This document shows positions 20,125-48,800 of a stretch of 60,000 nucleotides of DNA, in pieces (position 1 is the first letter of the stretch; every line of letters begins with the position of its first letter). The notes beneath the pieces were generated by a model. It saw only the letters and a program-made list of their open reading frames with translations. It made no database searches and was not told the origin of the DNA. A program made the translations under genes and the position numbers. Location: the NCBI GenBank assembly GCA_051294905.1, contig CM119373.1, positions 2,110,001 through 2,170,000 on the forward strand. The letters run 5' to 3'. Source of the stretch: Botryllus schlosseri (Eukaryota).

Positions 20125-23079
20125 CATTAGTGAATCTGGAAGTTTTTCGTTCCCATAACGTGACCACTCGCAATTTGGGTGCGTGTAGTAAGCGGATATG
20201 AAATAATATAGATAAGTCCGGAGCTCATCGGAAATGGACATGGATCTCTCAATATTGGTAGTTGGCGTCCAGCTAGTTCATCGCGACTAAGCCCTGGAAT
20301 GCTGCCGTAGGCTACATGATTAATCGATATGCAGCCGTGAATAGTAAAAAGGCTGGCGACCCCTTGGAAATGAATTCCAGCTAAGCTTTTCATTTAAGAG
20401 AGCTCGTTTCTCATGCACTTGAAATTCAAATCATTCAAACTTTTTTTTATAATGGTGTCGAAGCATATACACTTATACAATCTTCCAGCGATTTCAATAC
20501 CAATTGACAATATATACCAGTATTTTAATAATCTGTAATATGTATTGTGCTGCATCCAGAATATTTCGCGATCGGTATTTTTCGTTACATGTCGCTACAT
20601 CTCTAATCGCAAAACCATGTATTCCAAGGCGCCCATTGTAAAATGCCAACATGTAACAAGGTTTTTGTTATCGCTGGTAACGAAACGACCGGCGAACGGT
20701 CATATTATCAATATCTATTATAGGATAATAACTCATGGTCTAAATCTAGCCGACTGAGTGAAGAAAATCGAATTAGTGTTTGATGCTTGACTCATATGTA
20801 CTCGGGATCCAATTTCCTAGTTTTTGATCACCCCGCTGGCCACAGCGTCAATATGGGTATGCAATGTATTTTTAAGTATGTCGAATTTGACGAGGTGAAA
20901 TTGTTCGATTGAAGGTTAACCGAAATAGCAGACTGAGATTCCACAAATATCGTGACATTGTGATTTACTATTTTTTAGCAATTTATGCGTTGCACGAATA
21001 AAAACCACATTCATAAATATTTGACTAGAACTGTCATTGTACTTGACAGGGAGTACGCATCATTTGTCAAAATTATGAGAAATAGGCACCATAGCCGAAT
21101 CTAGTTTTAAGATATCATATTGATAAGTATAGGCTATTGATTATGTCGTTGCGCAAGTCAAAATAAAACTGTGTTGGGTTTAACTTCACTAGTGTCACAG
21201 CGGTGGAGCGTAGCACTACGGTATTCACCATCTTAAATCGGCGATAAAGATTCGGATAAAGGGTTCAAAGATGCAACTGACTACACATTAAGGTGGCAAC
21301 AGAATGCTCTATGTTGTGATAACAACTTGCTTCGATAGCGAAATATCATGTCACGAGCTTATCATCTATTACGATCCCCTGGACACGCGAATAATAATTT
21401 TTCCGTACATGGTTATAACCATGTCATGACGTTCCGACTTACTCGGAGGCAACTCAGTCATTTTCATCTTGTCACCGAGTCATTCCAAGTAACTCTGCGA
21501 GAGGTCGCCTGAAACTCCAAGTCACACTTTTCAGTCTCGAATCATGGATCATGCTTCATCATCATGATAAGGCTATTCCATGGAATAGCAGATCTTCCAC
21601 CGCATGGTACCGTTTGAAAGTGATGCCATAAAGCGAAGTTTGCTCAGTAATTTTATGATTTTTGAGCAAATTTAAAGTGAATGATAACTTCTGAAATCTG
21701 ACAAAAAGTAATGTTGCACATAACTGCTGCCAAGTATAGCTTACTTGGAAAACCAACGTTTTCACGTGTCAGCGCAAAATGTCCTCGCGGGTCGCGTGTT
21801 TGGTATCCAGGCTTAGACCATGCGGATTACTACTATGAAAACTATTGCTGGTGCAAATAGAGAAAAGAATTTTCAGATTTGGCATGACGTGATCGGTGTA
21901 TTGTGAATTAAACGCGAAATATGCGGCAATACAAAATTTAAGATATTAGACCCAAAAGTGAAGCATTTCAACCCACACAGGTCTCCTCTCTATGGTTGCT
22001 TGTAAAATGTAAATTATGACGGAGGGAGCTATGTCGAACAATAAAAGAGGAATCTAGCGTACACGCAGTGTGACCTAATGCTCATTCTTTACGTGGGATT
22101 TCGAGGCTGCTGATTACGAATATCACAATAGTAGTTAGATAAATGTGCACGACGCCCCCATTCGCGATTTATAATAAACAAACAAACATTATCAATATAA
22201 TAATTAATGAAAGAATTAGCTCATTCTCAGTTTTGCAGCAATACGCAAGGGGAATCCCCTTCTGACTGTGCGGCAATCAAAAAGGGGGAATAATTACCAA
22301 TAGAGAGAAAACAACAAAGAATCTGGATTGACCTTTGTACTCAGACATGAGACTGGAGTCATTCTACTTGTACTTTTCCACTCGCCTCCTGATTATAATA
22401 CATTGTAATTTTACTGTATTTTTCCACGATCCATAGCTGACCTCGGTCGTACACGACGGAGCTTGATAATAGTTGCCTGCCCTGACCCGTTGTTCCGTGG
22501 TCCAATTTCATGACCTGGGAGCAATAGCCCGTCAAACTGGTTGACTTATCGTTCCGCGGTTGATTCAATTTCGTGTACGGGGGGAGGGGGGGGGGTCATA
22601 GGAATAATTGTCGGTCGTGACGTCAGTATAGTTTTCTTCTGATCCATGAGATCCTGGTGCGTGTTTTAGGTGTCCATACGTTCGGCTGTGTAAGGTGACG
22701 CTTGTGGTCTGTCTCATACTGTCGTACTTGAACCCGCTTGCTTTGTTGTCCACCCAGACAGTAACGAGAAATGATCTGTTATTATTATAAATATGTGTGT
22801 CATTTCGAGTCATACCGAGAATCAGAATGAATGTCCTAGTAGAAATTTGTATTAGGCGACCCGACATAGATTAGCTTAAATAAAGTAACATTATGAATAT
22901 AATAAGTAATTAAACAAATAGCTGATTCTCAATTTTGCTCGCATCAACGTGTTAACCCCCGGTATTACGTACCTAGTATTCGGTGCAAGCAACAAATGTG
23001 GCTGTTCCATACCTATACCGCGTTCTAGCGTCTTAGGACAGACAGTCCCAACCAAACAATGTGATGGGTTCTTTTACTG

Positions 23080-24945
23080 CAGTGGTTCTTAACCTTGCCT
23101 CCAGCGCCCCCTCAGGGGGCGCTGGCGATTTTGAAAGGGGGCGGAAACGCTCAGGGGGCGATATGGGGGGCGCTGGGCTCAGGGGGGCGGTATGGGGGGC
23201 GCTGGAGAAAAATGGCTTCGCAGTAGATGATGTGGTGGTAGGACATATCCTTAATGAGTATTCAGAGAAAATGAACACCGAAAACTTCGTTATATATAGC
23301 CTACAAAAGACATATAGGTTTAATTGTCCATGGGCGCCTAAATGACTGGCACCGAATATTCCTGTGTTGGCAATCTGAACCCTAGAAGACGAATTCCATC
23401 CGGCAGGGAAAAATTATATGCTAGTGAAAAAATACCAATTTGAAATCGTGTTCGTCTTAGTGCGATTGGGCGACAGGGATATCTAAAACTAGATATTCTT
23501 GTTGGGCGATATCCCAGTTGGGCGATTCTATATTTTTTTATATAGCAGACAGGAGGTCACGAAATAACATCATGCAACGAAGTCATACCAATGGGTTCGC
23601 CCGCCCGAATATGTTTAATCATTAGTTACGGGCCTACAGTTTCCAAGACACCTCACATTGTTCGCTCCACGTTTTGATGAGTCTGCGCACTCTCAATAAA
23701 CTCACTGCCCAGACCCTTGGACAACAGTGCGTAACGACTAAAAAAGGGTCAAAACTTCGGATTAGTTGTGCGCAACGTAGATGTTCTGTGCACAGATACC
23801 ATGTCAGCACTGCGCACGTGAGCAGCTTAGACGGAGCATTGCACCTCACTCAGCTCTACCGGTAAATCTGGTAACGTGAGCAGAGAGGACAAGAAATTAA
23901 TAGCAATATATATGCAATTCACGATCTTACTGACCGATTTTATCATGAATTATCGAAAGTTTTCGCACTTCGCACTGGCTCGCTAAACAGTACAGCTGAT
24001 TTCGTGGCAAAACGAACAACGTGATGGGGGCGGTCGGGTTATCACCCTATGGGAGCCCAAGACCCAAGTTTTTTCGGGGGGCCTGGCGAAGTGCCGTTTC
24101 GTTCCTGCCAACGGGTATACGCCCGAAGATGTATAATTATTATTGAGGGGTCCTACCTTTTTAATCACACATCTTTCAGCTCTACCGGTAAATTTGTTTA
24201 CGTGAGCAGAGAGAGGATAAATTTGATATCAATATACATGCAATTCCCGATCATATTTACCAATTCAATCATCAATTATTGAAATTTGTCGCGCTTCGCG
24301 CGTCTAGGCGGGAATACCTGGCTCAGTAAATGGACACCCAATGTAGATGAATAGTATCAGCAAATAGTGGATAGCCGAAAGGGGGTCTGGGGGCGAAGCC
24401 TCCCGGAATTTTGGTTTATCACCCGATGGGGGGGGGGGCTAAGACCAACGTTTTTGGGGGGCTGACGAAGTGCTGTTACGGCCCTGGTAACGAATTAATT
24501 GTACCTACGAGCACGCCCGAATATGTTTAATTATTAATCACGTGCCCTCCATCTTCCCATACAACAGCTCAATCAGCGCTACTGGTAAATCTGATTACGT
24601 GGGCTGAGAGGATAAAAAGTTTATAGCGACTTATATATGAAATTACCACCTATTCATTCATGCATTATAGAAAATATTGTTACCTAGGGCGACCATGCCA
24701 CACAAACTTAGCTGACAATCGAAATCACGCTACGAGGTTCTTGGGGGCGAAGCCCTCGGAAGTTTGGTTTATCACGCTATGGGTGCGCAAGGCAATCATT
24801 TTTAGGGGGGATGACGAAGTACTGTTACGGCCCTCCCTCTTACGCATTGTCTTTATTAAATTCCTTACAATATGCGGTTGGGGGGCGCTGGAGCACGATA
24901 ATTTTTGAAAGGGGGCGCTGGAGGAAAAAAGGTTAAGAACCACTG
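23080..24945. mobile_element. Non-autonomous hAT (Charlie-like) element nested in the left palindrome arm
   Basis: TIRs CAGTGGTTCTTAACCTT / AAGGTTAAGAACCACTG. 8-bp TSD TTTTACTG (23072-23079, 24946-24953). The right arm has the empty site (~34586-34594). Confidence 0.92.
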
Positions 24946-27369
24946 TTTTACTGCTTCACGTCTTGTCAAGCGTAATCGTGCCGGTGCTTGTAAATGATAT
25001 ACAATTTACCGCGGCATATTATTTTTGTATAATGTACACGAGGTACAACTTGAATCGATCAGTTGGCGAACTAATGCTTTACCCGTCTGTACGATCGATC
25101 GCGAGCTCACCACGCACTTGTCGTTCGACAGCGACTCATTTCGCTATAGACAATCAGTTGTGTTCGCGTGTACCGTAACATATCCTCCACACTTGTTATA
25201 CCAACACCTCCAAGCATATTCACAATATCATACTAAGGATATATTGCTTCGGCAGCCACGCGCTGTCGTTCGAATTCGACTAATTTCGCTGCAGACAATC
25301 AGTTGTGCTCACGTTTACCGTAACATATCCCCAACACATGTTATGTCATATTTGCAGCATCATACTACGGATATATTAATTTTGGCGGAGTGTTACCATC
25401 AGAGAATTGCTGTGTCACGTCTTCGAGCCTCGCATTTCCCGTTCGAACTCGGTAACTGCGAGTAGGCCTACGATGTCAGATTCAGTGGTATAGTGACGAA
25501 TCCGGGTAGCTCACTTCATCGGGGATCAGTGGACTGACCTTATTTGGCTGAAACGCGCTCGGTGGTGCAATAATGGGAATGAATTGCGACAGATCATACG
25601 TGATGCGATCTATAGCCTGCTTTCGGCGAGGTGCAAAGATGAGTGGGAGATTTCGAAATCGGAATCCACCGCGACTAGGGTTGCCAAATAAAAGTCCAAA
25701 AAACCCGGCTGGCACGTAAAGTCCTGGTATTTCCATATATTGGGCTGGTAAAATGTGGCATAAATCCGACTCTCAAAGACACTTGGCCGCATCCGGTGTG
25801 GCTTTAACCAAAACTGATGAAATCTGCGCCGGGTCCAGAAACGAATCGTGACCAACCCCCCGTCCTGACAAAATAGTTCGGCTGGAATGTGGTTGTCGTT
25901 GTGCATTCATTTGCGTACAGCGAAACTTTGTATCGACTCATTGGCGGAATTCTGTTTGATTCGTCTGTACAGGTATTATTATAGTGCAATCAGATTTGGC
26001 ATCACAGGGAGTATATGGGTAAAATAGTATCCATAACACAACGATAATAACTCTACCCGTCAACAACTCCAACGGGATATATCTATGTATATTTCACTCA
26101 TAATAATATGAAAAGATAATTCACCACGTTCACACGATTGCTTATTTTTTCGACGGGAACGGTGATCACACTGACTGGTTGTCATCACTCGTCGTTCGAA
26201 TACTTGTAATTTTCGATGGGGTGTGATGAACGCCAATCAGCTGTGATCAATCGAGCGTGACACAATCGATGTCAGTCATCAATTCGCCTGTTTGACAAAA
26301 CTCGCGTCTTCGGGTTGACAGCAACACAATACGATACATTTGATGTCTCCATCGACCCTCCTAATAGGGTTACCATACGGCCTCATTTAGGGGAGCATAT
26401 GTCCTCATTTTCCCAGATATGTCACCCCTTCGCCCCAAATATACTCTCTTTCTGTCAATTTGTTCTCCTTGTTAGCTTAACATATCTAAAAAACACCACG
26501 AGTAACGCAAAATGCGGGCCTAGATTACGAAAGTCGGGGATTTAGGTAGCCAAATCGGAAAAAAAATGACGCTATGATGGCATCGTGCAGGCTATCACGT
26601 GGATACGGGGGGTTGTGTAATCATGTATAGGTGAATAGTAAAAGCGACCCAAACTACCGCTACATGAAAAAGATCGAGCGCACTCGACCACCCCTGTCGG
26701 GGTATGCCCACCTTAGTACAGCCAAATGATCCAATGTCGTACCGAGAATAGCCTGGGTGGTGGTATATCATTCTCACAAGATGTACTTTGGAATGCGTGT
26801 GAAATCGACATCGCCCGTTACTCGACTGAAGCAAGTCGCCACTGCAGCCCCTCTCTGTGTATACACAACGTGCTGAGCACTGCAGATCCAGACGAAACTA
26901 GGCATTCTGGCGAGGTTATCGAGATAGCTGGAGCGATTTACAACACATGCTAAATTTACTTCAAATGGAAGGACAAAATATAGCTTTGGAGTACTCAAGT
27001 AACTTTAAAATTAAACGTCGGTATAGTGAAATCGCTTTTCTATCCTAATTATAAAAGAGTAGGCTCCCATAAAACTGTCGAGCTCAAACACGTTGGTAAC
27101 TATGATGGTGCAAGTAGACAAAACTGACTCGAGTACCTCAGAAATAGTTACTGTATTTCGTTGCCGACCACGCGCCTGCTTATTCACACCGACTGACTCG
27201 CGTAGTAAGCAACTGCACCCCATCATCTTTTTATTGCTCAAATAATTTTGCAATTCACGAAATTCATTCTAATTTGCCGGTAGTGTTATCAGCACAAAGG
27301 ACACAGTTACACAAGTCTCGAAAAAAAAGGTGTCGATACACTACAATCGTTTTATCGCCACTATTCAAC

Positions 27370-28548
27370 TCATAGCTCGATCACACGACTGACGTTTCCG
27401 TAGATCAATTTTTGGCGTTTGATCAACTCTTGCCTGGTTATGGGGTTTCTAATCACAGGGCGATTGAGATTCGGGTGTGTCTTTTCGATACGTTGCGCAA
27501 ACTCGATACCTTTCGTTCGGAGTACGTATTCACACTGCGGAAACCATTTTGCATGTTCTGTCCAAACCTCGTCTTCATGGTCCCAACGAAGCCCGCCGTC
27601 ACAGTAAAAGCATTTGGTTCTGTCCGAATCGACGTAGTAAAACCCCGCTTTTGCTAACTGTTCAACACTAGCTCTAATTTTATTCGGTTCCCAGCCCTTG
27701 TCGAACGTTGCGATTCTTTTCGACAACGACGACATGCGAGGGTTCACGGGTTTAAGACAAGGAAATAGTTGCTCAAGACATCGCTTTTCGTCCTCGCAGG
27801 GTTCCTCTGGTTCTTGCAGATGTAAAGTGAGACGTCGTATTTTGTCGTCAAGCAACTTATCCAAATTGTCTCGTTCGTACTCGGTTAACGCCACATTCCC
27901 CGAATCGTCGCCACGTGCGAAACAACAATCCTGGCGATACGTCAAGTGTATTTCAGATATATCGTCTGTAGGCCTCCAATTGCGTAGAACGCCGGAGCAG
28001 TTGAAGCACTGCGTTCTGTCCAGGTCACCGAGGTAGAATAAACCTTGTTTTGCCAACTCGCCGACCGCCCGTGGTATGGGATAGCTGGGCCATTTCTCAA
28101 AGGTTTCGCGACGCTTCGACTCCTTTCGCAAGTCGAGATTCCTAACCCGATACTCGTGCTCTTGATCAACGATATTCGCAAAGTTGATGTTGGCGTTTCC
28201 AGCGGCTTCAAACTGTCTCAATAAACTTTTGAAATTCGATTTCACAATAGGTATGTTCAACGCGTCTCGTACACAATTCGCGTCATGACGCCGTACACTC
28301 GACCCGGTCCATCTTTCGAGGTACACACTGCATCCAAAGCATTTGATTTTGTCTTCAAATCCTAGCCAGTAGTATCCTTCAGACGCTAAATCGGTGCGTG
28401 TTCCGTATGATACTTTAGAGAATTTGGCGAACGTGGCGAGTCTGTACAATTCAGTGCGGTGAGAACCGGAAGCTATATACACGCGTTTCTGTCCGGGTGG
28501 ATCAGAGTATCTCTCCATTCGCGTAATGCCAAGCTCTTTCATAAACAT
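27370..28548 (-). CDS. Inhibitor of apoptosis (IAP/BIRC family), three BIR domains, no RING, intronless
   Basis: 392-aa ORF with three BIR motifs: RLATF..LASEGYYW..CFGC..H..C; RRETFEKWP..LAKQGLFY..CFNC-x16-H-x6-C; RIATF..LAKAGFYY..CFYCDGGLRW..EHAKWFPQC. Confidence 0.95.
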   Translation of the reverse strand: MFMKELGITRMERYSDPPGQKRVYIASGSHRTELYRLATFAKFSKVSYGTRTDLASEGYYWLGFEDKIKCFGCSVYLERWTGSSVRRHDANCVRDALNIPIVKSNFKSLLRQFEAAGNANINFANIVDQEHEYRVRNLDLRKESKRRETFEKWPSYPIPRAVGELAKQGLFYLGDLDRTQCFNCSGVLRNWRPTDDISEIHLTYRQDCCFARGDDSGNVALTEYERDNLDKLLDDKIRRLTLHLQEPEEPCEDEKRCLEQLFPCLKPVNPRMSSLSKRIATFDKGWEPNKIRASVEQLAKAGFYYVDSDRTKCFYCDGGLRWDHEDEVWTEHAKWFPQCEYVLRTKGIEFAQRIEKTHPNLNRPVIRNPITRQELIKRQKLIYGNVSRVIEL

Positions 28549-30080
28549 GGAGTACTAAGACAGGGCTTTTGTGTCTAAACGTGCCCCATAGGTCAACCGA
28601 GTCGGCTCACACATATATTCCTAGTTTATCCTTGAGAGCTGTATAGATTACCGGTAGCTGTACTTTTATGGCTGATTGACAACCGTTAGCTGTCGCTATT
28701 GCACCATTTACATATGTTTTTACCAGGAGCGGGCAACTTCTGCAATCCGCGGGGTGTGTATAGCTGAGTACCTTGGCGGTGCGTATTGCTGAATCGATGC
28801 ATTTTTCGACCACCGATCAACATATACGAGGAATAAATCGTATTCAATCAATGTATTTTAGCAACAGCAATGTCACTACAAAGTCATATCTCGCCGATAA
28901 TAACGAGGACAATGTGGATTTGAGAACCGTATTTTTATACAGGCACCGCCATGTCTGCTTCTCCCTAATCAATTAACACACGGTGCAATACTTAAATAAG
29001 ATTTCATAGTGGTCTATAAGCCTGATACCCTAAATTGACAGAGATATCAATTCATTACAGTTGTTTTGTAACGACGCTACAGACAAGTATCAGTAAACAC
29101 AAAACGAATTGTCACACTGTTGCGTCAATTCACCGACGACTCAGTATGAGACACGCTCGACCAACGAATGTGCATGGGACAACCGAAACAGGTGACCTTG
29201 CGTGGTGGGTATTTTCGATAACACCGATACGGCAACTTTATTCTCTCTACTGGCAATGTGATGGAGAGCGGCTTAATTCATCAGACAAAGGCTGGAAGCA
29301 ACAACTAGCAAAGACAAATCTAATGGCCACACTGACATTCACAGGTATTCGATAGACCCGATCATACCGAAGTCATCCCACTTCTGTAATGGCACGGGTA
29401 CGAAGCATTTTGAACGGTGTTGCTCGGTCGTGGTTTTTGGCCTTCCAAGACCTCTGTTAGCATCAGTCCATCCCCCGTATATTAATCGATGTAGTCAACT
29501 GGTTTGTGTTGTCCAATTTACTTTCTGCACCCGCTTCACTGCTCCACACCAGGTGTAAACTCGAGTAAACATATTTATTGAGGCGTATAGCACGCAGTGG
29601 GGTCCTTATGGATCAACACTGTATTGATGGGCACCCCAAAAGCCTACACAGGCGGTCATGTGACGTTGAAGGAATAACGAAATGACACGTTAGCGCCGGT
29701 GTTTTCACAGGTCATCTGCTTACCTATGAGTAAAAAGCGACGTTTATCGTATAGAAGGCGCGGTGAACGACCGGTTACGGTCCGGAATGAGATGTGGTAA
29801 ACGCGTATTGTGTTGAACGCATCAAATTTGTCCCCCTGTCTGTTTATGACCACACTCGACGATAACAAAAATTCAAAGACATGAAAGCACGTACGAGCGA
29901 ATATCGACGCTAACAAGAGAACGATCAATCAATATTCAACTTGGCAGTGACTTTCCGCTTTAGTAAGTTTACCAAAGCCATGAGGTCGTGCAAATAGTAC
30001 AGGCGTCAATTTCTATATTCTACACATGAGCGAGTGATCGCAATTACGACGTTTGACATTGGCACTCCAACAGTGAGATA

Positions 30081-33000
30081 GACTGATGCTAACAGAGGTC
30101 TTGGAAGGCCAAAAACCACGACCGAGCAACACCGTTCAAAATGCTTCGTACCCGTGCCATTACAGAAGTGGGATGACCTCGGTATGATCGGGTCTATCGA
30201 ATACCTGTGAATGTCAGTGTGGCCATTAGATTTGTCTTTGCTAGTTGTTGCTTCCAGCCTTTGTCTGATGAATTAAGCCGCTCTCCATCACATTGCCAGT
30301 AGAGAGAATAAAGTTGCCGTATCGGTGTTATCGAAAATACCCACCACGCAAGGTCACCTGTTTCGGTTGTCCCATGCACATTCGTTGGTCGAGCGTGTCT
30401 CATACTGAGTCGTCGGTGAATTGACGCAACAGTGTGACAATTCGTTTTGTGTTTACTGATACTTGTCTGTAGCGTCGTTAGAAAACAACTGTAATGAATT
30501 GATATCTCTGTCAATTTAGGGTATCAGGCTTATAGACCACTATGAAATCTTATTTAAGTATTGCACCGTGTGTTAATTGATTAGGGAGAAGCAGACATGG
30601 CGGTGCCTGTATAAAAATACGGTTCTCAAATCCACATTGTCCTCGTTATTATCGGCGAGATATGACTTTGTAGTGACATTGCTGTTGCTAAAATACATTG
30701 ATTGAATACGATTTATTCCTCGTATATGTTGATCGGTGGTCGAAAAATGCATCGATTCAGCAATACGCACCGCCAAGGTACTCTGCTATACACACCCCGC
30801 GGATTGCAGAAGTTGCCCGCTCCTGGTAAAAACATATGTAAATGGTGCAATAGCGACAGCTAACGGTTGTCAATCAGCCATAAAAGTACAGCTACCGGTA
30901 ATCTATACAGCTCTCAAGGATAAACTAGGAATATATGTGTGAGCCGACTCGGTTGACCTATGGGGCACGTTTAGACACAAAAGCCCTGTCTTAGTACTCC
31001 ATGTTTATGAAAGAGCTTGGCATTACGCGAATGGAGAGATACTCTGATCCACCCGGACAGAAACGCGTGTATATCGCTTCCGGTTCTCACCGCACTGAAT
31101 TGTACAGACTCGCCACGTTCGCCAAATTCTCTAAAGTATCATACGGAACACGCACCGATTTAGCGTCTGAAGGATACTACTGGCTAGGATTTGAAGACAA
31201 AATCAAATGCTTTGGATGCAGTGTGTACCTCGAAAGATGGACCGGGTCGAGTGTACGGCGTCATGACGCGAATTGTGTACGAGACGCGTTGAACATACCT
31301 ATTGTGAAATCGAATTTCAAAAGTTTATTGAGACAGTTTGAAGCCGCTGGAAACGCCAACATCAACTTTGCGAATATCGTTGATCAAGAGCACGAGTATC
31401 GGGTTAGGAATCTCGACTTGCGAAAGGAGTCGAAGCGTCGCGAAACCTTTGAGAAATGGCCCAGCTATCCCATACCACGGGCGGTCGGCGAGTTGGCAAA
31501 ACAAGGTTTATTCTACCTCGGTGACCTGGACAGAACGCAGTGCTTCAACTGCTCCGGCGTTCTACGCAATTGGAGGCCTACAGACGATATATCTGAAATA
31601 CACTTGACGTATCGCCAGGATTGTTGTTTCGCACGTGGCGACGATTCGGGGAATGTGGCGTTAACCGAGTACGAACGAGACAATTTGGATAAGTTGCTTG
31701 ACGACAAAATACGACGTCTCACTTTACATCTGCAAGAACCAGAGGAACCCTGCGAGGACGAAAAGCGATGTCTTGAGCAACTATTTCCTTGTCTTAAACC
31801 CGTGAACCCTCGCATGTCGTCGTTGTCGAAAAGAATCGCAACGTTCGACAAGGGCTGGGAACCGAATAAAATTAGAGCTAGTGTTGAACAGTTAGCAAAA
31901 GCGGGGTTTTACTACGTCGATTCGGACAGAACCAAATGCTTTTACTGTGACGGCGGGCTTCGTTGGGACCATGAAGACGAGGTTTGGACAGAACATGCAA
32001 AATGGTTTCCGCAGTGTGAATACGTACTCCGAACGAAAGGTATCGAGTTTGCGCAACGTATCGAAAAGACACACCCGAATCTCAATCGCCCTGTGATTAG
32101 AAACCCCATAACCAGGCAAGAGTTGATCAAACGCCAAAAATTGATCTGCGGAAACGTCAGTCGTGTGATCGAGCTATGAGTTGAATAGTGGCGATAAAAC
32201 GATTGTAGTGTATCGACACCTTTTTTTTCGAGACTTGTGTGACTGTGTCCTTTGTGCTGATAACACTACCGGCAAATTAGAATGAATTTCGTGATTTGCA
32301 AAATTATTTGAGCAATAAAAAGATGATGGGGTGCAGTTGCTTACTACGCGAGTCAGTCGGTGTGAATAAGCAGGCGCGTGGTCGGCAACGAAATACAGTA
32401 ACTATTTCTGAGGTACTCGAGTCAGTTTTGTCTACTTGCACCATCATAGTTACCAACGTGTTTGAGCTCGACAGTTTTATGGGAGCCTACTCTTTTATAA
32501 TTAGGATAGAAAAGCGATTTCACTATACCGACGTTTAATTTTAAAGTTACTTGAGTACTCCAAAGCTATATTTTGTCCTTCCATTAGAAGTAAATTTAGC
32601 ATGTGTTGTAAATCGCTCCAGCTATCTCGATAACCTCGCCAGAATGCCTAGTTTCGTCTGGATCTGCAGTGCTCAGCACGTTGTGTATACACAGAGAGGG
32701 ATGCAGTGGCGACTTGCTTCAGTCGAGTAACGGGCGATGTCGATTTCACACGCATTCCAAAGTACATCTTGTGAGAATGATATACCACCACCCCGGCTAT
32801 TCTCGGTACGACATTGGATCATTTGGCTGTACTAAGGTGGGTATACCCCGACAGGGGTGGTCGAGTGCGCTCGATCTTTTTCATGTAGCGGTAGTTTGGG
32901 TCGCTTTTACTATTCACCTATACATGATTACACAGCCCCCCGTATCCACGTGATAGCCTGCACGATGCCATCATAGCGTCATTTTTTCCGATTTGGCTAC

Positions 33001-35535
33001 CTAAATCCCCGACTTTCGTAATCTAGGCCCGCATTTTGCGTTACTCGTGGTGTTTTTTAGATATGTTAAGCTAACAAGGAGAACAAATGGACAGAAAGAG
33101 AGTATATTTGGGGCGAAGGGGTGACATATCTGGGAAAATGAGGACATATGCTTCCCTAAATGAGGCCGTATGGTAACCCTATTAGGAGAGTCGATGGGGA
33201 CATCAAATGTATCGTATTGTGTTGCTGTCAACCCGAAGACGCGAGTTTTGTCAAACAGGCGAATTGATGACTGACATCGATTGTGTCACGCTCGATTGAT
33301 CACAGCTGATTGGCGTTCATCACACCCCATCGAAAATTACAAGTATTCGAACGACGAGTGATGACAAGCAGTCAGTGTGATCACCGTTCCCGTCGAAAAA
33401 ATAAGCAATCGTGTGAACGTGGTGAATTATCTTTTCATATTATTATGAGTGAAATATACATAGATATATCCCGTTGGAGTTGTTGACGGGTAGAGTTATT
33501 ATCGTTGTGTTATGGATACTATTTTACCCATATACTCCCTGTGATGCCAAATCTGATTGCACTATAATAATACCTGTACAGACAAATCAAACAGAATTCC
33601 GCCAATGAGTCGATACAAAGTTTCGCTGTACGCAAATGAATGCACAACGACAACCACATTACAGCCGAACTATTTTGTCTGGACGGGGGGTTGGTCACGA
33701 TTCGTTTATGGACCCGGCGCAGATTTCATCAGTTTTGGTTAAAACCACACCGGATGCGGCCAAGTGTCTTTGAGAGTCGGATTTATGCCACATTTTACCA
33801 GCCCAATATATGGAAATACCAGGACTTTACGTGCCAGCCGGGTTTTTTGGACTTTTATTTGGCAATCCTAGTCGCGGTGGATTCCGATTTCGAAATCTCC
33901 CACTCATCTTTGCACCTCGCCGAAAGCAGGCTATAGATCGCATCACGTATGATCTGTCGCAATTCATTCCCATTATTGCACCACCGAGCGCGTTTCAGCC
34001 AAATAAGGTCAGTCCACTGATCCCCGATGAAGCGAGCTACCCGGATTCGTCACTATACCACTGAATCTGACATCGTACTCGCAGTTACCGAGTTCGAACG
34101 GGATATGCGAGGCTCGAAGACGTGACACAGCAATTCTCTGATGGTAACACTCCGCCCGAATTAATATATCCGTAGTATGATGCTGCAAATATGACATAAC
34201 ATGTGTTGGGGATATGTTACGGTACACGTGAGCACAACTGATTGTCTGCAGCGAAATTAGTCGAATTCGAACGACAGCGCGTGGCTGCCGAAGCAATATA
34301 TCCTTAGTATGATATTGTGAATATGCTTGGAGGTGTTGGTATAACAAGTGTGGAGGATATGTTACGGTACACGCGAACACAACTGATTGTCTATAGCGAA
34401 ATGAGTCGCTGTCGAACGACAAGTGCGTGGTGAGCTCGCGATCGATCGTACAGACGGGTAAAGCATTAGTTCGCCAACTGATCAATTCAAGTTGTACCTC
34501 GTGTACATTATACAAAAATAATATGCCGCGGTAAATTGTATATCATTTACAAGCACCGGCACGAGTACGCTTGACAAGACGTGAAGCAGTAAAAGAACCC
34601 ATTATATTGTTTGGTTGGGACTGTCTGTCCTAAGACGCTAGAACGCGGTATAGGTATGGAACAGCCACATTTGTTGCTTGCACCGAATACTAGGTACGTA
34701 ATACCGGGGGTTAACACGTTGATGCGAGCAAAATTGAGAATCAGCTATTTGTTTAATTACTTATTATATTCATAATGTTACTTTATTTAAGCTAATCTAT
34801 GTCGGGTCGCCTAGTACAAATTTCTACTAGGACATTCATTCTGATTCTCGGTATGACTCGAAATGACACACATATTTATAATAATAACAGATCATTTCTC
34901 GTTACTGTCTGGGTGGACAACAAAGCAAGCGGGTTCAAGTACGACAGTATGAGACAGACCACAAGCGTCACCTTACACAGCCGAACTTATGGACACCCAA
35001 AACACGCACCAGGATCTCATGGATCAGAAGAAAACTATACTGACGTCACGACCGACAATTATTCCTATGACCCCCCCCCCCCCCCCCCCCGTACACGAAA
35101 TTGAATCAACCGCGGAACGATAAGTCAACCAGTTTGACGGGCTATTGCTCCCAGGTCATGAAATTGGACCACGGAACAACGGGTCAGGGCAGGCAACTAT
35201 TATCAAGCTCCGTCGTGTACGACCGAGGTCAGCTATGGATCGTGAAAAAATACAGTAAAATTACAATGTATTATAATCAGTGAGTGGAAAAGTACAAGTA
35301 GAATGACTCCAGTCTCATGTCTGAGTACAAAGGTCAATCCAGATTCTTTGTTGTTTTCTCTCTATTGGTAATTATTCCCCTTTTTTGATTGCCGCACAGT
35401 CAGAAGGGGATTCCCCTTGCGTATTGCTGCAAAACTGAGAATGAGCTAATTCTTTCATTAATTATTATATTGATAATGTTTGTTTGTTTATTATAAATCG
35501 CGAATGGGGGCGTCGTGCACATTTATCTAACTGCT
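30081..35535. repeat. Right arm of giant inverted repeat
   Basis: GACTGATGCTAACAGAGG at 30081 mirrors CCTCTGTTAGCATCAGTC ending at 29468. The spacer 29469-30080 is unique. Confidence 0.97.
31001..32179 (+). CDS. Inhibitor of apoptosis (IAP/BIRC family), three BIR domains, second copy
   Basis: Mirror copy of 27370-28548. The proteins differ only at LIYGN vs LICGN near the C-terminus. Confidence 0.95.
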   Translation: MFMKELGITRMERYSDPPGQKRVYIASGSHRTELYRLATFAKFSKVSYGTRTDLASEGYYWLGFEDKIKCFGCSVYLERWTGSSVRRHDANCVRDALNIPIVKSNFKSLLRQFEAAGNANINFANIVDQEHEYRVRNLDLRKESKRRETFEKWPSYPIPRAVGELAKQGLFYLGDLDRTQCFNCSGVLRNWRPTDDISEIHLTYRQDCCFARGDDSGNVALTEYERDNLDKLLDDKIRRLTLHLQEPEEPCEDEKRCLEQLFPCLKPVNPRMSSLSKRIATFDKGWEPNKIRASVEQLAKAGFYYVDSDRTKCFYCDGGLRWDHEDEVWTEHAKWFPQCEYVLRTKGIEFAQRIEKTHPNLNRPVIRNPITRQELIKRQKLICGNVSRVIEL

Positions 35536-35760
35536 CACAATTGTTTTGCCAGATTGACACCAGAAAAGAAGATATTTAAACCCCTAAAAAAGAGCTTCAA
35601 ATAACTGTATTTAACCTTGAACTTTTCACTTGGTAGGAAATAAATCTTAGAATTTTTAATTTTATACCGCACATAAATATGCAATCGAATATGATGAACA
35701 TTCGTGTCGTTCTCAGTTATACCGTCAACAGCAACATGACCTGATGCGAGAACTTTGTTA

Positions 35761-36341: not shown

Positions 36342-39287
36342 CTTCGTTATAAAATAAATTGTCACACCTAAAAAATGTGCTTTTGCACAATGGTAATATA
36401 ATTTATCTTGTACCAATCGGTCATTCTACCAAGATGAAAGGGGAGTATGAAGCTATCAAGTTTGTCCCTGGAAAGCAATTTAAGAGGGAATTTTCAACTT
36501 TATAACTTGAAAAGACATATGTGATTCATATACATCGTCAAATTACTAAAAATCCGAAATGTCGTCGCGAGCCGCACAAAACGCTCTGGCGGGCCGCGTT
36601 TTTGAGACCTCTGTATTATATGATAATAACTCATGGTATAAATCTAGCCGACTGAGTGAAGAAAATCGATTTAGTGTTATGCTTGACTCATATGTACTCG
36701 GGATCCAATTTCCTAGTTATTGATCACCCCACAGCGTCAATATGGGTAGGCTATTCAATGTATTTTTAAGTATGTCGCATTTGACGAGGTGAAATTGTAT
36801 GACTGATGGTTAACCGAAATAGCAGACTGAGATTCCGCAAATATCGTGACATTGTGATTTACTATTTTTTTAGCAATTTATTATTTTTTTAGCAATTTAT
36901 GCGTGGCACGAATAGAAACCATATTTATAAATAATTGACTAGAACTGCAATTGTACTTGGCAGGGAGTACGCATCATTTGTCAAAATTATGAGGATTAGG
37001 CATAATAGCCGAATCTGGATTAGAGGTATCATATTGATAAGTATAGGCTATTGATTATGTCATTGGCCAAGTCAAAATAAAACTGTGTTGGATTTAACTT
37101 CACTAGTGTCACAGCGATGGAGCGTAGCACTAAGGTTTTCACCATCCTAAATCGGCGATAAAGATTCGATAAAGGGTTCAAAGATGCAACTGACTACACA
37201 TTAAGGTGGCAACAGAATGCTTAATGTTGCTATAACGACTTGCGTAGTTAGCGAAATACCATGTCACGAGCTTATCATCTATTACTATCCACCTGGACAC
37301 GCGAATAATAATTTTTATGTCCATGGTATAACCATGTCACGACGTTCCGAGTAACTCGGAGTTAACTGGAGTCATTTTCATCTTGTCCACGAGTCATTCC
37401 GAGTAATTCTGCGAAAGGTCGCCATGTTTTATCATAATGGAATGGCAGATCGTCCACCGCATGGTACCGTTTGAAAGTGATGCCATGTATAGCGAAATTT
37501 GATCAGTAATTTTATGTTTTTTGACCAAATTTAAAGTGAATGATAACTTCTCAAATCTGACAAAAAGAAATGTTGCACATAACTGCTGCCAAGTATAGCT
37601 GACTTGGAAAACCAACGCTTCGACGTGGCTGCGCAAAATGTCCTCGCGGGTTGCGTGTTTGTGATCCAGGCTTAGAGCAAAACTATGGCTGGTGTAAATA
37701 GAGAAAATAATTTCCAGATTTGGCATGACGTGACCGGTGTATAGCGAATTAATCGCGAATTCACTTTGAAGCTGAAGAGAGGCTTCTTCAGCATTTAAAA
37801 TGCATCTACCTAAAATGGGGCATATAAGTATCCTCCCAAGGCATTCAAAATGGCCTTGCACTTTCAAAAACACACCTGAAATCGCAAACGAAGACGTGCA
37901 AATTCAGAGTGAATTATAATTTTTCAAATTTGACAAAAGGAAATGTAGCATTTCACTGTCATCAATTACTTGGAAATCCAAAATTTCGACGCAAGCCGTA
38001 CTCAATGAACTCGCGGTCCTCCTGTTTCAGACCCTGGCTTAGATCATGTATATTACTATTGGTTGCCGGCGTGACAGTAACTTAAATTAGAGGATTTTGA
38101 AAAGAGGCCCCGAGCCCCTAACCTTTAACACGCCACTGTATTAACCTCTTAAAGACATGTTTATACTGCGACAAGAATAATTATACTGGCCGTGTAGAAG
38201 ATTTAATAACAAGTTACTGCAATATACATAAATTAATCACAAATATACAAATTTCGCAGATAGTCATATATTATGCCCAAATGAGCCATCCTTATATGGC
38301 TCGCGAGCCATAGGTTCCTGACCACTGAACTATAGAGTGTGTTTTCGAACCCGCGTACCACCCCTACTAAATGGGGTGTGAATATACACCAATGGCACAC
38401 GAAACCAGAACCCACCTTAAACTTATATCGCGGTATGAATCGAGCACAACATTTTATTTCAAATTTTGCATGCACGTAGGCAAGTAGGAGTTATGACCGC
38501 GATATAATTCTGAGTTAGGTCCTGTTTTCATCTATCACTCTTTTCGGCCTTTGGGTGTGAATACAAACTCTTTTCGCTAAGAGGAGACTTGAATAAGATA
38601 GGAAGTTTACTCACAAAACGCGCAGTTTACCATTCATATTAGAAATCATTGTATACTCTACCAGTTGTAAAGCAAAATATACGAAAGAACAGTGCATTGA
38701 TTGATTCGATATATGCGTGTAATTGCACTGTGAGTTAACAGCCTGACAAAAATTAAAGGCTACTGCAATGTGATCGATTGTCGCTTAATTACGTATTCAC
38801 GTCTATGCTCGAGCAGTATAGCTAACCCGTCGCTTCCACAATTGCATGTCTTAAATTGATATTTATGCAAACTTCAAGTCAAGAGTATCGATGTGCAAAC
38901 CTGAATTTATTAGCTTATGAAATTCTAAATTCGAAAATATATAAAACAGACCGATATTGATCGAATGAACCCTAGCAATTTTGATATCTGAAATCTGTTC
39001 ATCAAACAAACCGTTTGTTGGAATTCACAATCATATGTCGAGAATCAACATCTGTGACTTTTCAGTGTCTTGTGATGGGAGTGCAATTCTTCAAAAATAT
39101 CAGAAACCATACCGTATTCTTTATTGCAGTCTTAACATAGAGGAACCCTATATAAATAGATTGCTGTAGCAATTATACAATTCGTTTATTATGTCGAAAC
39201 AATAATACACCATGCGGCCCGATACTGATATCTTGATATATAATATAATGAAAAAGAATAATATTGTTAATATTTCGTCACCTCCAG

Positions 39288-45807: not shown

Positions 45808-48800
45808 GTATAGGCTATTGATCTTGTCATTGCCCAAGTCAAAATAAAACAGCGTTGGATTTCACTTTACTGGTGTCACAGCGGTGGAGCGTGCCGCTGC
45901 GGTATTTGCCATCTTTAATCGGCCATAAAGCTATGGATTAAGGGATCAAAGATGCAACTGAGTGCACATTAAGGGGGCAACAAAATGCTAAATGTTGATA
46001 TAACAACTTACGTCGATAGCGAAATACCATGTCACGAGCTTATCATCTAATACGATCCCCTGGTCACGTGAAAAATAATTTTTGCGTCCAGGTTATAAAC
46101 ATGTCACGACACTCCGAGTTACTCGGAGTCGACTCGAGTCATTTTCACTTTTTATCACCGAGTCATTCTGACTAATTCAGCGAAAGGTCGCCTCCAACTC
46201 CAAGTCACATTTTTCAGTCTCGAATCATATACGGTTCATGTTTTATCATCAAGATTAGAATATTCTATGTAATAGCAGATCTTCCACCGCATAGTAGCGT
46301 TTGAAAGTGATGCCATATAGCGAACTTTAATCAGTAGTTGTATGTTTTTTTGGCAAATTTAAAGGAAATTATGACTTTTCAAATCTGACAAAAAGAAACG
46401 TTGCACTGAGCTGCTTCCAAGTATCGCCTCCTTGGAAATCCAAAATTTTGACGTGGCCGAGCAAAATGTCCTTGTGGGTCGCGTGTTCGGGACCCAGGCT
46501 TAGATCATACGGGTTACCACTATCAAAACTACTGCTGGTGTAAATAGAGAAAATATTGCCTAGCTTTGGCATGACGTTACTGGATTATTGCAAATTAATC
46601 GTCAAATATGCGGCAATACAAAATTGACGATTTTGGACCGAAAAGTTAGCATTTCACCACACGCATGTCCGTTCTCTAAGGTTGCTTGTAAAATGCAAAT
46701 TAAGACGGACGGAGCTATGTCGAACAATAGCAGAGAAATCTAGCGTACCGCCGTACATGCAGTGTGACATAATGCTTATTCTTTATGCGGAATGCGGTCA
46801 CTAAATGTCGCTAAAAAGTCGCTGGTAATAACAACATGTCAATGCCTACGCGCGAATTTGCGTGCTTTTTGTGCTACCAAGAAACATCATGTCGATCCAA
46901 AAAAACTCCTAAAACCGAACTAATCTCCATGCTAATATATTTTCATCATTTCTGGCCTTCAATATTATTCACGACACATCGCACCGTAGATATCTTGAAG
47001 ATTGCGTTCTGCAACGAACTATAGCACTGGTCAACAAAATGAAAAATAAAAAAAATTGGCAGAACATCTAGGAACTGCTATAGGGTTTTCAAGGTTGCTG
47101 ATGACGAATAGTACATTTGTTTTGCCAGATTGACTTGCCCACTAGACTTGAGTCTTTTCTCTGGGTCATTTGCTGTCATCATTCAAGAGTTCGGCTCTCT
47201 CTTTGTCTGAGCTTTTCAATGCACTGTATTTATAGCGGGATCGGAGATGAGGAGCCCAGATAAACCTCCGACACATAGAAACATGGCAGAGCCGAGACTC
47301 GACCCACCGTGACAGCAGTGTTTAACCAACTGCGCCACTCGCTTCCCCGTGACATAAATATATCCTTATTCTTATGACGCGGTCACATGTTAACGTATAG
47401 CTTATACAGACGTGGTGGTGTACTAGCGTTACAGCTATAGGGATCGCTCGCATGATTATAACGATAATGAAGACGTCATAGTTCAGTCGTAACAAATGAT
47501 CGATCGTGTTCTCTATTCTAACTCTAATCTTTTTAATGCTGTCTGTTGATTCGTGCGTAACCTGAATAATTCCGACTTTCAGCAGCATCGGTTTATTCGC
47601 ACGTTTCCATACCGCTGCTTCACACCTACAGAATAGTCTGCCGATCACTGTCGCAACAAGAACCACAATTATACTCATTTATACGTTCATTGTATTTATT
47701 ACTCTGAAATCAAACTCTTAACAAAAACACGTACAATCGTTTCATTAATTTTTTTATCGTCACCAAAATAATTCAGTTATTCCTTGGTTGAAAAATTTTG
47801 AGCTCGTTTCGTCAAGAATGTTATAGTATGATATTCGAACACATCTGATGTTTTACTCTGTAACTGTTTCCCAGTCACGGAAAATTCATCCGGTTCCATG
47901 AATTCGATTATCCGAGGTTTTAGTGGTCCGAAACCTAGTGAAACATGAAAATGAGTCTGGCGCCCCCTATTTTAAGGACTGTAGTAAAAACCAATGGGTA
48001 AGTGGTCGAAGTCCGCTTTCGGGTTAGGATTTCACTATTAGACCTCTCGACTAATTAACGATATAATTTTTCATGCTGTTTTCGAGATCTAATCCAGGTT
48101 GTTATAACAACCATCGGGTAAGGACTACGGGCTCATGGCATTTGGTTCGAGATCGATGGACACATCTCGAATTCTCCTCTGCGATTGGCAATACGGTGAA
48201 TAAAATTGTATTGGTTTCGTTTTATTGCTTTGTCTGACCACTTAATCAAATGAGAATGTGGTAGAGATTTGCTCACATTACATTTAGTGCTGCTCTTAGT
48301 TTCAACATGAATGCGGGTAACAACACTCAGCAGTATCACCCTTTATGATACGATGAAGAAATATTCTGACGACATAATTTTGTAGCTCTCAAATACAAGC
48401 ATATTTAATTACTCGTTTTTACCAAAAAGCTGCAAAACACCTTTATTGTACAAAGGACATCACTCTCAAAAGTTGTTCAGTAGCCTTTAGCGCCTCTACG
48501 ATTTAGGCACGCAGTGCGCTTCAGGATAAAATACCTAGTTAAAAATATTTTATGGAAAACAACCCGAGCTATCAGTATAAGTATCAGTTTATTATTATTT
48601 TCATAATTTCAAAACACCACGAAACTGTGATAAAATGAGGGGATAGGAAGATGTCAAAACGACTTGGAGTAGCTAGCGTGAAAGGAGTGTTATAACGGGG
48701 AATTAGCAATCCAAAAGTACGCCAAATTCATTTTACATGATTTAAAATTAATCACTGCATTCATGAAAACAGGGGTCGGTTGATATTTCGCGATGAGCGC

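Follow-up and report, generated by a model that had tools for sequence, protein, structure and literature searches.

The stretch analysed here, which we call the window, comprises 60,000 nt of the Botryllus schlosseri genome (G000:C3:2110001-2170000) and carries at 22130-35535 a 13,406-bp palindromic insertion, each arm of which contains an intact gene for an inhibitor of apoptosis (IAP) protein with three BIR domains. The two IAP open reading frames (ORFs) are arranged head-to-head, and nowhere else in the 60 kb of the window does a frame reach 200 aa. The insertion has ends of the Polinton/Maverick type, is flanked by a 6-bp target-site duplication (TSD) and belongs to a family of palindromes dispersed across the genome. 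Its features, in window positions, are the following:

22124..22129, left copy of the TSD CACAAT, identical to the hexamer at 35536-35541
22130..29472, left arm, 7,343 nt including the nested element and 5,477 nt net of it, starting AGTAGTTAGATAAATGTGCACG
23080..24945, nested hAT-like non-autonomous element, 1,866 bp, in the left arm only, with ends CAGTGG...CCACTG
27370..28548, minus strand, IAP gene copy 1, 392 aa with three BIR domains but lacking a RING domain
29473..30076, spacer, 604 nt, the inner end of the right arm whose mirror copy was lost
30077..35535, right arm, 5,459 nt, terminating ...CATTTATCTAACTGCT
31001..32179, plus strand, IAP gene copy 2, 392 aa, differing from copy 1 by 1 aa
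32314..32319, plus strand, candidate poly(A) signal AATAAA, 135 nt past the stop codon
35536..35541, right copy of the TSD CACAAT, matching the left copy
47083..47134, paralogous target without an insertion, within a further copy of the host repeat, from flank alignment

The left junction reads ...atatCACAAT then AGTAGTTAGATAAATG..., and the right one ...CATTTATCTAACTGCT then CACAATtgtt, with AGTAGT at the left terminus and AGCAGT (as the reverse complement), one substitution from AGTAGT, at the right. The junction letters thus bear out the original prediction, made from this DNA alone, of a 13.4-kb insertion with AGTAGT/AGCAGT termini and an exact 6-bp TSD. That prediction had also placed an empty site within the window, and an uninterrupted target does lie at 47083-47134: the left flank (22095-22127) aligns to 47083-47115 (27/33) and the right flank (35537-35558) to 47113-47134 (21/22), the two abutting over one hexamer. 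The site is, however, paralogous rather than allelic, since it lies in a different copy of a host repeat. Three or more copies of the host repeat that received the insertion are present in the window (21630-22129, 37491-37759, 46319-46785 and 47083-47134), with 81-86% identity.

Mapping of the inverted arms by repeat search yielded seven collinear blocks, from 22130-22383/35282-35535 through 26849-29472/30077-32700, each 99-100% complementary. The arms are about 5.46 kb net and about 99% alike, with arm-to-arm differences of 17 + 40 alignment columns, or, in another alignment, 40 mismatches over 5,478 aligned nt. The anticipated inverted arms of about 5.45 kb therefore stand (the right arm measures 5,459 nt), whereas the spacer, put at 612 bp, is 604 nt long. 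The total of 13.4 kb exceeds 2 x 5.45 + 0.6 kb because of the nested, unrelated 1,866-bp hAT-like element in the left arm, which is bounded by an 8-bp TSD (TTTTACTG, at 23072-23079 and 24946-24953) and belongs to a very abundant family (10,194 first-look candidates; full-length matches at 93-97% identity among the 40 scored). Tandem Repeats Finder detected no array in the right arm. Both IAP frames are open over 392 aa with three BIR stretches each, in line with the two intact head-to-head triple-BIR ORFs expected. The expected absence of polymerase B, integrase, ATPase, protease and capsid ORFs was likewise found: 0 of another 55 ORFs, all 50 aa or longer, in the right arm, spacer and nested insert reached the Pfam cut-off, in a database that covers capsid proteins poorly. 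A genome search with the PF00770 (adenain) profile gave no candidates, but its controls were silent as well, so that it is uninformative.

We searched the whole 495.5-Mb assembly (219 contigs) for related elements; the counts given here and below are lower bounds. With the terminal 471 nt of the insertion as query, 379 candidates came up, 41 of which were scored as matches, the majority in plus/minus pairs, and a 27-nt end motif had 28 genomic matches as against 0 for the reversed control. The matches define at least 24 end-pairs on 13 contigs, spaced 4.8-23.4 kb apart with a median of 14.3 kb, and 14 of the 24 fall within 13.4-14.9 kb. We examined the letters of ten family copies (the window copy and nine others), and inspected the ends of eleven: ten have both ends readable, and one (C3a) has a truncated left end. 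The 6-bp TSD is perfect in eight of the ten (CACAAT, CACATC, AGCAAT, AATACG, GGCCTT, CATTGT, GTGAGA and CGTAAG) and matches at five of six positions in the other two, and every TSD lies at a different target. Counting the right end of the window copy with its one substitution, AGTAGT...ACTACT stands at both ends in 10/11 copies; the subfamilies C9a and C10a start AGTAGTATAGG. These TSDs at different targets, together with the uninterrupted paralogous target, show that the family is mobile. Chance is excluded by the repeated occurrence of this architecture at numerous loci, with TSDs that differ. Palindromic copies with other 6-bp TSDs (e.g. CACATC, AGCAAT and AATACG), which the original prediction had proposed to look for, do exist. 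The end motif is also a familiar one: (AGT)2//(ACT)2 ends combined with a 6-bp TSD are given as the commonest signature of vertebrate Mavericks in the pertinent passages of Barreat & Katzourakis 2021 (PMC8097293).

The palindrome is a property of the family as a whole. Inverted arms of at least 4.5 kb are present in nine of the ten copies examined, the tenth being a deleted 4.8-kb remnant; across the family the arms span 5.5-6.9 kb and make up about 90% of each element, around centres of 1.2-4 kb that include a core of about 1.05 kb common to three copies at 90-98% identity. The segment that forms the 604-nt spacer in the window sits inverted in both arms of standard copies, from which it follows that the window copy lost its centre together with one copy of this segment. 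The window copy is thus an internal-deletion derivative, lacking a centre of about 1.2 kb and one 604-nt segment, and it received the hAT-like insertion later. Its two IAP genes are 2.45 kb apart, the shortest distance among the listed pairs, as compared to the typical 4.3-5.1 kb. The larger copies have been enlarged by nested repeats. No recognisable gene was seen in the 12.5-kb centre of the C3 copy or in the C1 centre, and the 58 centre ORFs of seven copies contained no polymerase, rve integrase, ATPase, protease or capsid family in Pfam. The centre of the 21-kb C13 copy harbours a nested long interspersed nuclear element (L032:2196-6766, minus strand) with an open ORF2 of 1,099 aa (endonuclease and reverse transcriptase) and an ORF1 of 427 aa.

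Within each copy the two arms are nearly identical. Pairwise alignment gave 98.3-100% identity between the arms of the same copy, with mismatches amounting to 0/4,499 nt, 1/6,261, 6/6,619, 40/5,478 (the window copy) and 106/6,213, while corresponding arm segments compared from copy to copy show 85-96% identity, with the lower values in mid-arm. Since arms are alike within copies and divergent between them, they must be made alike at or between transpositions. In the window copy the differences are unevenly spread, with nine in the inner 2.6 kb versus about 48 in the outer 2.85 kb, a gradient that leaves some role for conversion or selection.

The cargo of the family is the IAP gene. The three BIR stretches of each ORF score at E 9.4e-46 against PF00653, and their closest structures in the PDB are the BIR3 domains of cIAP1 and XIAP for BIR3, and XIAP BIR2 for BIR2. 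The nearest relatives are ascidian proteins of 574-675 aa that have a RING domain at the end (best match 44% identity); the ORF in the element stops after BIR3. We found no RING anywhere in the element: tblastn with five ascidian IAPs was silent past residue ~488, and there is none among the 55 ORFs. In the genome, at least 106 IAP matches were recovered among 453 candidates, most of them in (-,+) pairs, and every pair examined sits inside a Maverick-ended element; this fits the IAP-delivery cassette that the insertion had been suggested to be. Full-length matches with at least 89% identity number 54, of which 35 have no stop. The gene is conserved, with a ratio of nonsynonymous to synonymous substitution rates (dN/dS) of 0.19-0.33 among three independent copies, and is probably kept open by purifying selection. 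Twenty-four single-cell RNA reads, from about 3% of one run, map to the element; twelve of them, all sense-oriented, are stacked at the 3' end of the IAP ORF (31921-32137), upstream of AATAAA. A loose-end string in these reads at 30570, considered as a splice, is a paralog variant of 30583-30594.

The other arm ORFs (177, 113, 109, 101, 98, 96 and 94 aa) are not conserved from copy to copy as open frames, the 101-aa frame alone being open in 10/17 arms; its comparison with the ESM Atlas stayed below the recognition threshold (RHS-repeat clusters at 0.94, with low shared features) and was discarded. A scan of IMG/VR with the IAP gave no match. A second IAP group exists in the genome, with about 70% aa identity to the first and 407-aa frames (18/26 matches open), located in much smaller palindromes with convergent genes (for example the pairs C4:18247008/18248736 and C10:5954647/5956664). 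In the copy of this group that we examined (G000:C15:3434800-3440299, about 4.9 kb) one IAP is partly deleted, and the right end reads ...ACTACT while the left is without AGTAG. Two proteins of Endozoicomonas, a bacterium associated with ascidians according to the source's name, combine BIR domains with a RING and match the IAP at 31-34% identity along some 90% of its length (P0010 and P0061); they may reflect gene transfer from animal to symbiont. Finally, runs X3, X9, X14 and X15, filed under four other organism codes, contain 35-51% of the sampled IAP-spacer-IAP 31-mers, and such near-identical copies under other species labels could reflect close relatives, mislabelling or transfer.

A related palindromic element carries a different cell-death gene. 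In this element, the C2a copy, each arm has a 95-aa ORF consisting of a Death domain only (L039:4938-5249, minus strand, with its mirror in L040; Pfam E 2.3e-10), accompanied by a BIR remnant. This ORF has at least 127 genomic matches, mostly open and largely in inverted pairs 5-23 kb apart, one of which lies inside an IAP-family end-pair (C12:25165132-25183115). The Death-domain-only protein may be a decoy adaptor.

Possible helpers are present in the same genome. A 1,212-aa ORF has homologs that carry PF03175, the polymerase domain, with matches down to E 1.6e-194 (33% identity, 90% coverage); this protein-primed DNA polymerase B (pPolB) has 38 long genomic matches among 370 first-look candidates, 35 of them without stops, falling into about three subfamilies. 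Adjoining it are an ORF for an rve integrase (E 1.6e-16) and one for a weak A32-like ATPase. The Polinton that we examined letter by letter, one of at least 38, spans 17,381 bp (G000:C3:9620390-9637770), has a terminal inverted repeat (TIR) of about 660 bp with 58-bp repeats and is flanked by the TSD GTGGTT. Its ends read AGTAGTATAG..., or in fuller form AGTAGTATAGTCG..., and have 10 nt in common with the C9a and C10a subfamilies of the IAP element. On the question of autonomous Polintons sharing the ends, which the original prediction had raised, the resident Polintons agree with the family in end motif and in the length of the TSD, and what is shared with the examined ones is the first 6-10 nt, not 300 bp. 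The C12a IAP element has inserted, with the TSD CGTAAG, into Polinton-TIR-like sequence of 58-bp repeats ending AGTAGTATAGTAG (flanks at L046:132-424 and L047:7278-7562). A profile search of the genome with PF03175 gave sub-threshold matches only, a lower one of which is the real Polinton. The best of these weak matches was ruled out as a Polinton polymerase: it is the catalytic subunit of host DNA polymerase delta, encoded on G000:C5 (L051:4080-7307, minus strand) in one continuous frame of 1,075 aa that contains all four Pfam domains, and either an intronless gene or a retrocopy.

Taken together, these data make it probable, in our judgement, that the insertion represents a non-autonomous family mobilised by Maverick machinery, with giant gene-bearing TIRs that each carry a host-derived, RING-less triple-BIR IAP. 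A non-autonomous Polinton/Maverick-type family with such TIRs was one of two possibilities raised for the locus originally, and it is supported by the dozens of copies, all ten of those examined being palindromic, and by the Maverick ends and 6-bp TSDs. We propose that resident Polintons supply the rve integrase in trans, which would act on the (AGT)2//(ACT)2 ends, and that the target would be opened by the 6-bp staggered cut of a Maverick-type integrase. The terminal AGT-AGT reiteration would fit protein-primed initiation with jumping-back, for which the reiterated ends of Mavericks have been interpreted as a substrate (PMC8097293, in the part dealing with such ends). With its arms, the displaced single strand could then form a long hairpin or panhandle, and both arms would thereby be renewed from one template in each cycle; such renewal would account for the near-identity of the arms inside each copy, as against differences of 4-15% from one copy to the next. 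Transcription of the two IAP genes runs outward from the centre. Given the resemblance to BIR2-BIR3 of XIAP and cIAP, the protein probably blocks caspases, and the benefit might go to the element and its helper by keeping the cell alive, or else to the host.

Several observations weigh against this account. Neither blastn nor tblastx detected homology between the element and the interior or TIR of the examined Polinton, and just 6-10 terminal nt are common to the family and the two Polinton ends inspected, so that derivation from Polintons is read from the ends and TSD only. No autonomous element with the longer ends of the family was recovered, all 28 matches to the 27-nt end resembling family members; 0 of the 38 pPolB loci lie within 30 kb of an IAP match, save for one neighbour on C15 that is a separate small palindrome. 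The capsid genes of the helper are unconfirmed (single-sequence structure predictions for Polinton ORFs of 301 and 298 aa have predicted local distance difference test scores of 37.5 and 41.3). Stops interrupt 19/54 full-length IAP matches, and six IAP matches at no fewer than four loci show '1 TGA' with a 401-aa frame; copies with stops imply that IAP function may not be needed for spread. The dN/dS values come from three copies only, and the RNA reads carry the base of a paralog at 32089 and hence stem from another copy, which indicates transcription of the family rather than of the window copy. The identity of the arms could equally reflect gene conversion between them once the element had inserted. 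We infer that the family is mobilised in trans, replicates by protein priming and renews its arms through a panhandle, and the palindrome is known from the assembly, Logan contigs being too fragmented to bridge the arms or the junction at 29472/29473.

How else might such an element arise? Long-TIR DNA transposons of another superfamily (Foldback/MuDR-like, P/Galileo-like or with an unknown transposase) could move by cut-and-paste and have acquired AGTAGT by chance, and long, internally repetitive TIRs are indeed described for Foldback and Galileo in the abstract of PMC3573991. The lack of homology to the Polinton interior, and of a proven helper, would suit this explanation. We nevertheless regard it as unlikely, since the TSD is 6 bp in all ten copies (eight perfect), whereas it is 9 bp in Foldback and 7-8 bp in Galileo and P elements; the end motif is exactly the published (AGT)2//(ACT)2 of Mavericks; resident Polintons of the same motif and TSD length are abundant; and simple cut-and-paste leaves the contrast between arm likeness within and between copies unexplained. 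The palindromic shape with Maverick ends would also be expected of a one-off copy-back (snap-back) defective Polinton, in which template switching duplicated one end before integration at the window locus, as the original prediction had offered as its other possibility. Incomplete adenovirus particles have inverted-duplication genomes of this kind. Vertebrate Mavericks, moreover, hold accessory genes in accessory regions according to the corresponding passages of PMC8097293, and an end-proximal IAP could accordingly have been duplicated. Yet all ten copies, which lie at different loci and have individual TSDs, agree in palindromic layout and arm content, meaning that the structure was inherited and not made at the window locus; the 604-nt spacer is an arm segment that standard copies have in duplicate; and comparison of the IAP and pPolB genome matches revealed no autonomous Polinton with the arm or the IAP. 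A one-off event is hence quite improbable as the source of the window copy, the internal-deletion derivative described above, while a copy-back event is possible as the origin of the family.

A last alternative dispenses with mobility and sees host palindromic gene amplicons, formed by recombination or fold-back repair, or else assembly artefacts. Genomic palindromes typically undergo gene conversion between their arms, uniformity is greater in the inner arm than in the outer one, and none of the reads or contigs obtained runs through the entire structure. Against this stand the sharply defined ends that the copies have in common, the 6-bp TSDs at targets unrelated to each other, the paralogous uninterrupted target, the spread of at least 24 end-pairs over 13 contigs and the one copy that sits in Polinton-TIR-like sequence with the TSD CGTAAG; point differences and a one-sided hAT insertion between the arms are, in addition, unlike a collapsed or duplicated assembly. 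We consider this explanation very unlikely indeed. The preferred reading, a Maverick-mobilised non-autonomous family, can be taken further, if tentatively: the elements might be satellites of Maverick viruses and an undescribed class, palindromes replicated by the pPolB of a helper, with renewal of both arms from one template per cycle through a hairpin or panhandle, selection for a size of about 14 kb that suits packaging in helper capsids, blockers of cell death (the RING-less IAP and a Death-domain-only decoy) as cargo that would keep the cell alive during replication of helper and satellite, and germ-line integrations that have inflated the IAP and Death-domain repertoires of the animal. 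This bolder proposal is in our view possible but doubtful.

With this family, the expansion of IAP genes has a carrier that can be specified. From 312 metazoans, a survey published in 2026 concluded that IAP expansion is dominated by dispersed duplication, and probably by transposition, and its passages on the subject name no vehicle (PMC13159474); the same source, citing Krasovec et al. 2024, mentions that the apoptosis machinery is reported to be reorganised in this lineage. Our literature searches returned no paper linking Polintons/Mavericks to IAP/BIR cargo or to palindromic derivatives. Cell-death-blocking genes gain with the family a concrete route by which to multiply across an animal genome, and the presence of two different cell-death regulators, the IAP and the Death-domain-only protein, on one platform suggests selection at the level of the virus-like element, as with viral IAPs. 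The combination of identity within copies and divergence between them amounts to a clock resembling that of long terminal repeats, and makes it possible to test, on natural copies, whether replication passes through the racket or panhandle intermediate that has been proposed.

In comparison with known systems, the family resembles Polintons/Mavericks in its end motif, 6-bp TSD and terminal inverted repeats, and its median size of 14.3 kb lies within the 12.7-24.6 kb reported for vertebrate Mavericks (PMC8097293, in the passages on element dimensions); it also co-resides with many Polintons of the same end motif. It differs in that no pPolB, integrase, ATPase, protease or capsid gene was detected in it with Pfam, the IAP being the sole long ORF, and in its TIRs of 5.5-6.9 kb, as against 46-1,447 bp (mean 402) in the same passages. 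The apparent range of Polinton/Maverick machinery is in this way extended to elements with no viral gene, with TIRs 4-15 times longer than described, and with functional host-like genes in duplicate. Butterfly polintons come closest: in the portions of the Pannagram preprint (10.1101/2025.02.07.637071) that describe them, they have TIRs of about 2 kb with hexon and adenain, and polB-less derivatives that still appear mobile. Both systems place whole genes in the TIRs, so that each insertion brings two copies, both include polB-less forms that are apparently mobile, and both carry cargo; by that account, however, the butterfly elements have core genes (hexon, adenain) in their TIRs and retain other core genes, while the arms here are three times longer, fill about 90% of the element and hold a host-like apoptosis regulator only. 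Host-derived coding sequence amplified by a DNA transposon is likewise seen with Pack-MULEs and Helitrons, among which full-length gene capture is exceptionally rare as stated in the passages of PMC6431247 that address it, whereas here a complete gene, probably under purifying selection, is present in duplicate. Foldback and Galileo are set apart by their TSDs of 9 bp and 7-8 bp versus 6 bp in all ten copies here.

Cargo-carrying Mavericks (Widen et al. 2023) are cited in the Pannagram preprint. Defective adenovirus genomes carry large inverted duplications of one end, and the likeness is that of a protein-primed linear replicon reduced to a one-end palindrome, near helper length and helper-dependent; the defective adenovirus genomes are transient in infected cells, whereas the family described here forms a stable germ-line lineage at dozens of loci with a cargo that appears to be selected. 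Viral IAPs occur in baculoviruses and other large DNA viruses, and the present gene shares with them, and with cellular XIAP and cIAP, its BIR domains, being once more an anti-apoptosis gene on a virus-like element; it differs in combining three BIR domains with no RING, where the nearest ascidian IAPs have one, and in travelling on a carrier that is itself non-autonomous.

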